From assembly GCF_000020385.1 (NCBI RefSeq), contig NC_010814.1, positions 2,520,001 to 2,552,000 on the forward strand: DNA of 32,000 nucleotides. Reading direction: 5' to 3'. The first letter of the stretch is position 1, and each line of letters opens with the position of its first letter. Below the pieces are notes generated by a model. That model worked only from the letters and a program-made list of their open reading frames with translations, did not search any database and had not been told where the DNA came from. This stretch comes from Trichlorobacter lovleyi SZ (GTDB lineage Bacteria; Desulfobacterota; Desulfuromonadia; Geobacterales; Pseudopelobacteraceae). The position numbers and the translations under genes are program-made. Below are positions 2,029-10,815 of this stretch, piece by piece.

Positions 2029-5000
2029 CTATGGTGTAATCGCCGGCTGACACCAGATGTTTCGGCTTTGCAGTTCCAAAAGCATTTCTGCTGCGCCACT
2101 ATCAAGCGGATTTAGCCCCAGCAATGCTCGCAGAGCGGTTTCACACGCATAGTGATCTGATGCACTCCGGCACAGGAGTTGTGCCCGTTCCAGCGCAGCA
2201 GCAGCATTTTCTTCATCCGCCTCCATGGCCTTTTCAAGGCAGTCAAGACGCTCTGTCCGGTCTGCACACCTATGTGCTTTGTACCACCACCAGGCAGAGA
2301 GGAGCTGCTGGCGAGAGGCGGTGGTTTCTTCGGAGAGCTTCCCCCAGAAAGAATCTGCCGGTATTTTTCCCACCGGGCAATCTGATGACGCCAGCTGTTG
2401 TTCAAGGGTCTGATACATACCGACCAGTTGATTGAACAGGCACCCTCGCTGTCTTAACAAGCTTTCGGAAGGATTCCGCAGGTCAGTACGGTAACGCCGA
2501 TACATCTCTTTCTGGGTTGCCACCATATCCGCTTTATAGCGGGTCGAGGTATTGGTAAGATCGTCCCGGACGCGGTATTCACAGGTGATATGAGGGGCTC
2601 GCCTGACCGGATAGTGGCGTGCGATCCTGATCCACAAATCCCAATCTTCATGTGTTCGTAGCGATTCATCAAACAGACCGACCGTTTCCAGACAACTCCT
2701 CGTATGCACCATGCAGAGAATCGGAATGTAATTTTCGCAGAGCAATTTTTCCCGATCAAACTCGTCCGCATAGATCACCTTACGCTCGGTCGTCACATAG
2801 CTGCCGTCAAGCAGCTGCTGGCATGCGCAGTAGGCATCGCTGTAGGCTGCCTGTACCCCCTGCGCCTGCATAAAATCAATGACGATGGCCAGGTGATCCT
2901 GATAGTACAGGTCATCGTCGTCCAGATAAGCGATGAACTGCCCGCGTGCGGCCCGAATACCGGCGTTCCGTGCTGCAGAGCGTTCCCGCCGTTCAGGCAG
3001 CCGGAGATGCACGATACGGTCGTCACGCATCGAGTCCAAAAGCTCTGTAAGATCGTCTCCGCCGTCGTTTACCACAACGACTTCCAGACTGGAAAGACTT
3101 TGATGCAGGATACTGCTGACAGCTTCCCGCAACATCTCCGGACGGTTATGGGTGGGAACGATAACCGATACGAGAGGCGGGAGAACGTTGCCGGCAACAC
3201 CGGCCCAAAAGCGGGCACCAGTATGGTCGCCGTGCCGTATTGACTTGATAATTCCAAGGTTCTGATGCGCCACTGTATTGGCGGAATCGTAGGCCAGTGC
3301 CTGCACAAACATCGCTTCAGCAAAGTCCAGATCGCTTACCCAGTGCCCGCCCCGGCGATAAAACTGAAACCCCAATGCGCCTGTTTCCACGTAGAGCCGA
3401 GCCAGTTCCTCCCGTTGAGCAGGTAGCGGGCGACCGTAAAGCCGCGCCAGACTTTCCGGCGAGGTATATTGTTTGCGGAGCATGTTCAACTCGTCTCTTC
3501 CTGATTTTTCAGTATGCTCAACGCTTGCAGCATGTTCAAGGTAGAGGCCGAGCGTCGCGGTAATTCGTCTTGCTTTCAGACCGGCACTGGCAAACCGCAG
3601 CATAAACTCACGATCTCCTGCCACCTTCAGATCAGCCCGGTACATCCCGATTTTTTCAAATACAGAACGGCGCAGCATCACTGCATGGGAACTGATCTGA
3701 TAGTACAGCAGCAAGGGAGGATAAAACGGCGGATACCTGAAGTGAAACTGATGCGTATCGTAGTTTAACCGGTCGTTTTCGAGCTTTGTCACCAACCAGT
3801 CACCGTAGGCGGCATCAAGCGCGGGATCAGCATTGAGAGCGTTGGCGAGCAGTTCAAGGGCATTGTTGCAGAAACGGTCATCCGTGTTTGCGTTGATAAG
3901 GTATCGCCCCCGAGCCATACTGACACCACGATTCCAGGCGGCGTAGACCGTTTCCCGCCGATCTGTACGCAGGTAACGGATACGGTCGGGATAGGTCTCC
4001 AAAAACGGCTGGATAGCGGCTAGCTCCTTCTGTGGAGAATCGGAATCAATGATGATCAACTCAAGGCGCCCTTGGGCGAATAATGTCTGTCCGACAAGGT
4101 CTTCAAGCCTGCCGTGTATGAACCGTTCGGCACTGTAGACTGAAATGATTGCCGTTACCGCAGGTAATTTGGAGTCATTGTCAGGGTGTACCACCTTCGG
4201 CGCCTCGTGCGGCGCCAGACCAAGGGCTAAACGACGTACCTCCGGACTATCCGGATTAATCGTCAAGAATTCGCGGCAAAATGCCGCTGCCACCGCATCC
4301 AGCCCCAACCGGCACAGGACCGCAATCATCTCTTCCGCCAGACCGGCATTATACGGCTGATACTCCAGAGCAAAACGGAACTCGTTAAAGGCACGCACGT
4401 ATTCGCCCCGGCACAGGTTGAGACGCCCGAGGTCACGATGGAGACGCGCAGAACAAGGATCGATGGCCGCAGCCCGACTGAGCCGCTGTTCCGCCCCTCT
4501 GCACTCTCCCTGCCCCAGGATATCCTCCCCCTCCTGCAAAAAACGCTGACACTGGTCACGCAGAACTGACAACTTATTCAGCTGCAGCAGCTCCGCAACA
4601 ACGTGCCGCTTTTCGATCAACGTAAGCAGACCGACTTCCCGCTGAAAAAAGTCCACCCGTTCAAGAGGCTGACCATTATGGAGTCTGGCTACTGCCACTC
4701 GAATATCGTCCAGGTAATGTCTCCACGCCGGGCGGGAATCTAAAGACAGAGCAGGGGCAAAACCGGGTTGAGCTATCAGTGCGGCAACCTGTTCACTATC
4801 TATTTTAAACGGTTCCGGCATGGCAGGTAAGGCATCAAGAACCCCGGCAAACCGTGCCCGCTCTGCCGTCAGAATGGTTTTTGCCTCATGATAATACTGC
4901 TCACGGTGCAAATAGCTCTTTTGCGTTCCGTAAACGCGCCGGAATCCGGCCAACAGGGTGTCAACCTGATGAAGCACGGTCACCCTGAAAAAGCGCACCC

Positions 5001-10062: not shown

Positions 10063-10815
10063 TCACCACGTTAAATCTTTTTCATAGCCAAGTTCTATCA
10101 GCGCGTTACCGGCATGCTTCTTAAAAATATATTTACTTGTGTCATCAAATATATTTTTCCAGTCACCGACTATTCCTTTTCTGACGAATTCACCTTTAAA
10201 AAAACTGAGGCTGGCACGCATATTTGATTTAGAGTGTTTTTCCAGTGCCAACCCAATAGCGTCTCGCGAAAAATCAAACCCGAGCCTATGGCCAAGACTA
10301 TTGAGTGTCGTAACAGGATCTTCAATCAGTTTTTCGTAACTACACACTACTTGCTGTTTACCACGCCATGAATCAAGGTATTCAACCCACTCTAAAGCCG
10401 TTTTTGTCAGAAAAATATTAAAAGGGATATCAAACCTGTCATTAAATCCATTCAGGACACAAAACTCTTTTTCAAAATAGTATTTAGAAACGGTAACGTC
10501 CCGGCCGTCTCTTACCAGATGTACGGTTGCGTGTTCAAAATCGTGAAGCCCGCTTCCGGGTTTCTCATGACTTTTAATAACGCAAGAGGGCGGCAGGCTG
10601 AAAGTATTTTCATTTTTGTACCAGGGGTGCATTGCCAGGTGGGGAGCATGATTAGTGTCATCCACATAAATATCGCGGGGCGGCAGTTGTAAAAGCTCTC
10701 CCAGCAGATTGCACAACCAGCTGCCGCCTGATTTGGGGTACTCAGCCACAATTATTCTCATACGTCGCCCCTGGAAAATGCCAAAGTTTGTCTCAGTTGC
10801 TGCTTGATGTGGCAC
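10063..10815 (-). CDS. PAPS-dependent sulfotransferase family protein
   Basis: It has the 5'-PSB motif YPKSGGSWL and the 3'-PB motif VHLVRDGRDVTVSKYY. The real start may be the Met at 10761 (MRIIVAEYPKSGG). The gene is visibly more AT-rich than the flanking slyD-like gene. Confidence 0.75.
   Translation of the reverse strand: MPHQAATETNFGIFQGRRMRIIVAEYPKSGGSWLCNLLGELLQLPPRDIYVDDTNHAPHLAMHPWYKNENTFSLPPSCVIKSHEKPGSGLHDFEHATVHLVRDGRDVTVSKYYFEKEFCVLNGFNDRFDIPFNIFLTKTALEWVEYLDSWRGKQQVVCSYEKLIEDPVTTLNSLGHRLGFDFSRDAIGLALEKHSKSNMRASLSFFKGEFVRKGIVGDWKNIFDDTSKYIFKKHAGNALIELGYEKDLTW

Follow-up and report, generated by a model that had tools for sequence, protein, structure and literature searches.

Which product is built by an operon that combines sulfation, methylation, radical S-adenosylmethionine (SAM) chemistry and four glycosyltransferase modules, and on which acceptor is it assembled? 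The question is raised by four adjacent genes of Trichlorobacter lovleyi SZ, located in a stretch of 32,000 nucleotides (nt) of contig NC_010814.1 (positions 2,520,001 to 2,552,000; hereafter the window, whose first letter is position 1). They encode a sulfotransferase, a triple-fusion protein, a methyltransferase of 220 amino acids (aa) and a 1562-aa glycosyltransferase (GT) with tetratricopeptide repeats (TPR). The operon, taken to be inherited vertically in Trichlorobacter, is tentatively read here as a soluble glycan assembly and tailoring line on the cytoplasmic side, with a protein as the preferred acceptor. Its predicted product, a methylated and sulfated glycan, is a reasonable one in the light of the domain assignments and agrees with an earlier annotation made from the sequence alone (the original prediction). 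Judged by its homologs, the operon itself is a trimmed form of a rare cassette which carries amino-sugar or nonulosonic-acid synthesis in other anaerobes.

Gene structure and enzyme assignments

All four open reading frames (ORFs) predicted on the minus strand were confirmed, at 2029-6717 (glycosyltransferase), 6721-7383 (methyltransferase), 7383-10010 (fusion) and 10063-10815 (sulfotransferase). The tight spacing originally described can likewise be read from the sequence: 52 nt separate the sulfotransferase TGA from the GTG at 10010, the fusion stop overlaps the methyltransferase start in TAATG, and a 3-nt spacer (gca) lies between the methyltransferase stop TAG and the glycosyltransferase ATG. 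In public gene calls (protein accessions ACD96063 to ACD96065 and neighbours) the fusion starts at GTG 10004, with GAGG 5 nt upstream, and has 873 aa; the sulfotransferase starts at ATG 10761 and has 232 aa, its longest ORF reaching 10815. No transmembrane segments were predicted in any of the four proteins and, as had been claimed, no exporter, priming transferase or sugar-nucleotide gene occurs across the whole window. Every enzyme assignment of the original prediction passed a test, in most cases a Pfam or NCBIfam cut-off; the GT8-like module falls short of its Pfam cut-off and is supported by fold and motif (Table 1).

Table 1. Features of the operon and its flanks, in window coordinates.
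Feature	Position	Strand	Basis or remark
Hairpin, 13 bp, G+C-rich, 8 G-C pairs	1945-1973		55 nt past the glycosyltransferase stop
Module 4, GT2	2518-3177	minus	DDDD motif; best GT2 stretch, aa 1184-1390
Module 3, GT2	3538-4167	minus	NTDD motif; Glycos_transf_2 E 9.4e-19 on the segment alone
TPR block, ~3 repeats	4213-4572	minus	about aa 716-835
Module 2, GT2	4918-5544	minus	NSDD motif; Glyco_tranf_2_3/GT2 over aa 392-578
Module 1, GT8-fold retaining GT-A	5653-6678	minus	DxD motif YLDADLYF
Stand-alone class I SAM methyltransferase, 220 aa	6721-7383	minus	Methyltransf_23
Fusion domain 3, radical SAM core and SPASM	7431-8303	minus	aa 570-860; both Pfam models above threshold
Fusion domain 2, TIGR04325-family SAM methyltransferase	8574-9266	minus	aa 249-479
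Fusion domain 1, degenerate MptE-like/Maf_flag10 (PF01973), sialyltransferase-like fold	9291-10004	minus	aa 1-238
PAPS-type sulfotransferase, 232 aa	10063-10761	minus	Sulfotransfer_1 and motifs
Sigma-28 (FliA)-type promoter-like element	10923-10949	minus	TAAAGAAG-N11-GCCGATTT; ~160 nt upstream of the sulfotransferase ATG

The sulfotransferase scores 63.5 bits against a cut-off of 22 for Sulfotransfer_1 (PF00685; E 2.6e-17) and carries PKSGGSW, KSH, RDGRDVTVS and RKGxxGDWKN at residues 9, 63, 84 and 194 of the 232-aa protein, so that it shows the threshold score, the 5'-phosphosulfate- and 3'-phosphate-binding motifs and the catalytic His motif of a cytosolic-type 3'-phosphoadenosine-5'-phosphosulfate (PAPS) sulfotransferase. 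The 220-aa methyltransferase scores 32.1 bits for Methyltransf_23 (cut-off 27). Its origin as the detached C-terminal extension of proteins P0004-P0006 was considered and rejected, no homology being found.

Within the 1562-aa protein, Glycos_transf_2 covers three stretches (243 bits, cut-off 23.3), and the nearest solved relative of module 4 is PglI (E 1e-23). Module 1 stays below the Pfam GT8 cut-off (17.9-20.7 bits against 24.3), but its AlphaFold model (confidence score pLDDT 93.9) matches the GT8 structures LARGE1, glycogenin, XXYLT1, LgtC and WbbM in Foldseek and the DADxxF motif is kept; it is therefore called GT8-like and not a proven GT8 member. The family of this module exceeds 5000 members, and fusions to GT2 or to strong TPR arrays are frequent in it. 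A DxD motif is retained in all four GT modules. The several TPR blocks originally described were reduced to one, which consensus-TPR proteins of the PDB match at E 1e-10 with Pfam TPR models remaining sub-threshold; the two other linkers gave no TPR match. Among strains, the gene is undivided in SZ and at locus L004 (loci outside the window carry L numbers), and is split into two genes of 829 and 734 aa, 80 nt apart and broken just after the TPR block, at L017 (10001-14774). A two-gene form at L018 (13490-18284) was inferred by tblastn only. This difference is a recent fusion or fission.

The triple fusion was confirmed as well, as a Maf-like domain followed by TIGR04325 and radical SAM/SPASM domains, the first of which the original prediction had missed. 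On its own sequence domain 1 has no Pfam match at E<=1. A profile built from five orthologs, in turn, places it in the PF01973/GT42-like superfamily, retrieving 378 stand-alone proteins of ~290 aa that nearly all belong to PF01973, and the best PDB matches of its AlphaFold model (pLDDT 88) are CstII and a Pasteurella sialyltransferase. This match is in line with a published report that relates the Maf domain to GT42 sialyltransferases (bioRxiv 10.1101/2020.06.03.131540). Unlike true Maf proteins, the SZ domain is without flanking helical domains, is fused to two enzymes and stands apart from nonulosonic-acid genes: those for NeuB and CMP-sugar synthetase, and likewise flagellin genes, are absent from the 32-kb window, whereas intact relatives of the domain adjoin genes for NeuB and CMP-sugar synthetase.

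Degeneracy of domain 1 was assessed by aligning it with 27 stand-alone family members, in which 62 columns are at least 90% conserved. Of these the SZ sequence keeps 39 and has lost 23, whereas each stand-alone member keeps at least 56 and a 53%-identical fusion (P0004) keeps 59. When the Maf-family motifs were checked (the GPS loop, LLGCDHDW and the HFY..E..W segment), the set was found broken, with GPS replaced by ESS, LLGCDHDW by LLGYGHDRP (CDHD to YGHD) and 38 aa deleted. The ratio of nonsynonymous to synonymous substitution rates (dN/dS), calculated against two other strains, is 0.30-0.32 in this domain versus 0.10-0.14 in the two catalytic domains of the fusion. Given the degenerate motifs and the relaxed constraint, domain 1 is a decayed nonulosonic-acid-transferase-like domain that has probably lost catalysis.

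Domain 2 is a clear member of TIGR04325 (LIC12133-type; 202.4 bits, cut-off 80, covering positions 2-218 of the 234 of the profile), with a DFGGSLGS motif that is invariant in the alignment examined. Members of this family are usually proteins of ~570 aa with an N-terminal GT-A domain, while the arrangement between Maf-like and radical SAM domains is confined to about six clusters. In domain 3 the Radical_SAM (33.4 bits against 29.5) and SPASM (50.9 against 21.5) models are accompanied by CX3CX2C in the form CNLQCSLC at aa 575 and by cysteines at 785, 803, 804, 834, 848, 852 and 855. No named NCBIfam radical SAM subfamily reaches its cut-off (the best is TIGR04317, 96 bits against 380), which is also true of the nearest relatives of the domain. 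At 50% identity the close family amounts to only ~4 clusters in a set of 1.84 billion representatives, and full-length relatives of the fusion are similarly rare (six clusters among 5.8 billion proteins). Among solved structures BlsE and BtrN, which act on sugars, come closest; the similarity is weak (E ~5e-4) and limited to the core, and the SZ domain differs in its full seven-cysteine SPASM and in its covalent fusion to a class I methyltransferase.

Related gene clusters and selection on the operon

Ten independent homologous loci were read by hand, with exporters and priming transferases sought within ~10 kb around each; a scan of a genome collection gave only two Brocadiaceae loci, and one of metagenomes only three loci. 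A nonulosonic-acid synthesis cluster at L007 contains a 53%-identical fusion whose Maf-like domain is intact and, after it, genes for the 220-aa methyltransferase (68%), an epimerase, an aminotransferase, a GT8-like+GT2 protein (47%) and another GT2. The same order recurs unfused in L012 (Brocadiaceae), as TIGR04325, radical SAM/SPASM, methyltransferase, epimerase, aminotransferase, GT8-like and GT2 genes, preceded by genes for a GDP-mannose dehydratase, a Wzx flippase and an FkbM methyltransferase. The 300-aa ORF upstream of TIGR04325 at this locus was tried as the unfused Maf-like domain and rejected (hhalign probability 0.2). L021, from a Geobacteraceae metagenome-assembled genome, has a radical SAM fusion, a methyltransferase, an epimerase, an aminotransferase and GT8-like+GT2, GT2/TPR and TPR+GT41 proteins.

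Other loci hold parts of the set. The sulfotransferase (65%) and the fusion (57%) adjoin giant GT/TPR proteins at L010, and at L020 the radical SAM gene adjoins a GT8-like gene among six methyltransferase-domain genes (five class I and one FkbM). Giant methyltransferase/GT fusions occur in L013, L021, L022 and L023, the last of which has its related five-gene unit directly between housekeeping genes, as in T. lovleyi. Maf-like homologs stand beside NeuB and a CMP-sugar synthetase in L007, L013 and L015. Compared with the cassette, the SZ operon is without amino-sugar or nonulosonic-acid genes and without the C-terminal methyltransferase extension, and has gained a sulfotransferase. It is thus a trimmed form of a cassette that recurs outside the genus.

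Exporters were found in two of the ten contexts (Wzx in L012, an ABC exporter in L015), and the remaining eight have neither an exporter nor a priming transferase. Homologs are therefore not always embedded in O-antigen or capsule loci, a check that the original prediction had set, and the window is not alone in lacking export genes.

A second, stand-alone radical SAM/SPASM gene (349-360 aa) was observed beside NeuB at L007 (3992-5041) and L013 (1-536), and another at the upstream edge of the L021 cluster (1-154); the L007 protein is 26% identical to the radical SAM domain of the fusion. This points to radical chemistry as a usual component of these sugar pathways. SPASM enzymes are often peptide maturases, several of which are among the weak NCBIfam matches of domain 3, and GT2 enzymes make glycocins, so that the radical SAM/SPASM domain and the GT2 modules could also be thought to mature a glycosylated, ribosomally synthesised peptide. 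We regard this as highly improbable: no plausible precursor ORF was found in or beside the operon, where the sole conserved small ORF lies on the opposite strand and encodes a membrane protein of two helices, protease and exporter genes are absent, and both the setting of the homologous radical SAM genes (sugar-nucleotide clusters) and the nearest solved relatives point to sugars.

The operon occupies the same chromosomal site, after a SlyD-like FKBP gene, in four Trichlorobacter strains. Against two other strains dN/dS is 0.09-0.20 in all four genes (0.11 in the sulfotransferase and 0.09-0.11 in the 220-aa methyltransferase), similar to that of the flanking FKBP gene, and these low values argue that the operon is kept by selection. 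They also bear on the idea that it is a decaying remnant of a larger cassette with no defined product, as the degenerate domain 1, the downstream insertion sequence (IS) element and the loss of the amino-sugar genes, nonulosonic-acid genes and C-terminal methyltransferase extension of its relatives might suggest. Such decay is very unlikely given purifying selection, which is visible even in the degenerate domain (0.3), the intact catalytic motifs and the intact ORFs in four strains.

G+C content at third codon positions is 0.41 in the sulfotransferase, 0.49 in the fusion, 0.50 in the methyltransferase and 0.58 in the glycosyltransferase gene, versus 0.645 +/- 0.049 in 17 neighbouring genes. 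The skew fits an old foreign origin of the three tailoring genes and, to that extent, the mosaic or horizontally acquired origin first proposed; because of the synteny in four strains and the purifying selection, any transfer must be old and the operon is no recent island. The SZ genome paper describes "genomic island M", a low-GC region of five capsule-type genes; its coordinates are given in neither the text nor Additional file 3 (PMC3403914), and it may or may not be this operon.

The acceptor, the upstream element and the flanking genes

In the pathway proposed here, the 1562-aa protein would add up to four sugars, using nucleotide sugars made elsewhere in the genome, and the glycan would then be tailored by the TIGR04325 domain, the 220-aa methyltransferase and the PAPS sulfotransferase. 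The radical SAM/SPASM domain may act on a sugar, with C-methylation, epimerisation and oxidation as candidate reactions, and domain 1 was probably retained for docking and not for catalysis. The TPR block would recognise the acceptor, a protein for which flagellin is the most plausible candidate, and flagellin's own secretion route would then carry the glycan out. The catalytic steps, their order and the acceptor are predictions from domain identities, conservation and gene contexts.

Absence of exporters from eight of the ten contexts, together with the GT8-like/TPR fusions, favours a soluble, protein-directed pathway without proving it. A GT8-like module also neighbours a TPR+GT41 protein at L021. 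Characterised members of the ancestral family of domain 1 glycosylate flagellin (bioRxiv 10.1101/2020.06.03.131540), the promoter-like element upstream of the operon is of the sigma-28 type, and T. lovleyi has several flagellin genes, of which Glov_3371 is expressed (PMC3543383, PMC6113397).

Several observations weigh on the other side. Candidate flagellin-glycosylation enzymes of Geobacteraceae have been reported inside flagellar clusters (PMC3543383), while the operon lies among housekeeping genes, ~1000 genes away from Glov_3371 as estimated from locus tags (PMC6113397), and flagellin, pilin or S-layer genes are adjacent in none of the ten contexts, nor does a flagellin-domain protein appear among the proteins listed for them. 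TPR support is confined to one block. In addition, the Wzx flippase of L012 is only two genes upstream of the cassette, a PF01973-like protein is linked to an ABC exporter and GT-C enzymes in L015, and the nearest characterised relatives of the GT2 modules (PglI, TuaG, WcaA and chondroitin synthase) use lipid-linked or polymer acceptors. The original claim of protein decoration as opposed to polysaccharide export is plausible, though somewhat short of an even chance, being supported by the eight exporter-free contexts and weakened by the missing substrate genes and by the exporters of L012 and L015.

The same exporters support a rival reading in which the operon contributes to a lipid-linked surface glycan, such as a lipopolysaccharide (LPS) O-chain, an exopolysaccharide or a glycan of the S-layer/oligosaccharyltransferase type. 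The multi-module glycosyltransferase would then polymerise on undecaprenyl pyrophosphate at the inner face, the chain would be decorated or capped with methyl and sulfate groups, and priming, export and ligation genes would be located elsewhere, in resemblance to ABC-transporter-dependent polymerase/terminator systems. The relatives of the GT2 modules, which also include EpsE, agree with this, as do the similarity of the module 1 fold to the O-antigen polymerase WbbM, the ABC2 transporter of L015 and, should it be this locus, the capsule-type gene content of island M; moreover, since the operon depends in any case on unlinked genes for sugar nucleotides and PAPS, the missing exporter is weak evidence. 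On the other hand, the eight contexts without exporter or priming transferase and the housekeeping genes that directly flank the L023 unit speak against it, and characterised TPR-fused glycosyltransferases mostly act on proteins. A lipid-linked product is considered somewhat less likely than a protein-linked one, though a serious contender.

Soluble proteins and exporter-free related clusters are also what an intracellular product would entail, that is, a methylated or sulfated oligosaccharide, small glycoside or glycolipid with no dedicated export. Mycobacterial polymethylated polysaccharides, encoded by small clusters of transferases and methyltransferases, may serve as an analogy, and related clusters are rich in methyltransferases (the six of L020 and the giant fusions mentioned above). 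We know of no precedent, however, for such polymers in the phylum or for sulfated cytoplasmic glycans, the TPR fusions and the sialyltransferase-like ancestry of domain 1 point to surface or secreted targets, and L012 has its flippase; this possibility appears quite unlikely.

With regard to a flagellin acceptor, the pattern TAAA-N15-GCCGAT has a single match in the window (0.04 expected), at 10925-10949 on the strand of the operon, within the gap of 250 nt that follows the FKBP gene. No other stretch of this gap is as well conserved in three other strains, and sigma-28 sites have been reported for the region preceding fliC in three Geobacter species (PMC2577667). Points against this connection are that in the other strains the spacer of the block is 16 nt long and its -10 element differs at 0-2 positions (ACCGAA in L018), that a TTGACA hexamer overlaps it and a sigma-70 reading is also possible, and that the regions preceding the L010 and L023 clusters showed no sigma-28-type site in promoter position. 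Loose-pattern matches in other loci are at chance level. The element is thus a lead on a putative mode of regulation, not evidence for it.

At the other end, the strong terminator originally described at 1945-1975 was recovered in part, as the hairpin of Table 1, but the T-run that follows it on the operon strand is weak (GATTTGTTTG). Further downstream (419-1772) SZ carries a truncated IS4-like transposase with DUF4372 and a partial DDE domain, in the place that a convergent class II ribonucleotide reductase gene occupies in other strains; two short plus-strand ORFs that overlap (1304-1600 and 1593-1772) gave no match in a PHROGs search. Between the FKBP and rhomboid genes, a small plus-strand ORF with two predicted membrane helices (11539-11781) appears among the gene calls of four strains (L001, L004, L005, L017) with a length of 61 aa. 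The rhomboid gene is single in the window (11823-12827) and forms a tandem pair (276 aa and 310-312 aa) in L004 (6321-8210) and L017 (2711-4600). The 2-hydroxyacid dehydrogenase (12796-13725) has 225 aa in SZ, with a separate 65-aa ORF just upstream, and is a 310-aa gene in the related strains L004 and L017; the SZ gene is probably frameshifted or truncated. Finally, an 86%-related strain has, between cupin_5 and HU, a gene for a 709-aa MASE3 histidine kinase/response regulator (L004 1831-3960) that is absent from SZ, where only short ORFs remain (14150-15168).

Comparison with known systems and significance

Soluble TPR-bearing transferases are known in FlmG of Caulobacter and GmaR of Listeria. 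FlmG is a TPR and GT-B protein whose repeats bind the flagellin substrate (PMC7591256), with N-terminal TPR and C-terminal GT-B domain, whereas the SZ modules are GT-A and the repeats are internal; the analogy drawn in the original prediction is in consequence functional only. GmaR combines GT2 and TPR as the SZ protein does, with marginal similarity (E 0.047). Both are single-module proteins encoded with flagellar or nonulosonic-acid genes, in contrast to a four-module protein among housekeeping genes.

Several GT modules per soluble polypeptide, helical spacers and methylation as a chain modification are features of WbdA/WbdD, WbbB, WbbM and WsaE. The SZ protein resembles them in its multi-module soluble architecture with helical spacers and in the association with methylation, and shares the GT8 fold with WbbM, but the window is without ABC transporter, priming enzyme or ligase, and to our knowledge none of these systems has a radical SAM or sulfotransferase partner. 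Nor does the window hold the priming, flippase or exporter, and polymerase or ligase functions of a Wzx/Wzy or ABC polysaccharide locus. A literature search returned no paper on the locus or on the function of TIGR04325, in accordance with the original statement that no characterised bacterial system was known with this combination; searches on Geobacter flagellin glycosylation and on radical SAM enzymes in flagellin glycosylation gave nothing useful, and a paper on an anammox S-layer glycan contained no gene cluster for comparison. The operon is uncharacterised and architecturally unusual, yet it belongs to a familiar class of glycan-modification gene sets.

If the operon feeds LPS or exopolysaccharide, it would be a further serotype-type gene set whose interest is purely local. 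Whatever the acceptor, for the methyltransferase/radical SAM-SPASM pair and the GT8-like+TPR family, no named NCBIfam family and no characterised member were found; as both recur in compact exporter-free clusters, characterisation of one member would annotate many genomes. It is a bold and improbable proposal that the operon and the wider cassette define an undescribed cytoplasmic glycosylation route in anaerobes, which would place a sulfated and methylated glycan on flagellin or some other exported protein and in which this pair would perform new radical sugar chemistry such as cobalamin-independent C-methylation. Should the acceptor be a protein, a glycosyltransferase of four modules, guided by TPR and coupled to tailoring by sulfation and radical SAM chemistry, would constitute a new type among the few known cytoplasmic O-glycosylation systems, in a bioremediation-relevant relative of Geobacter whose surface filaments are of wide interest.

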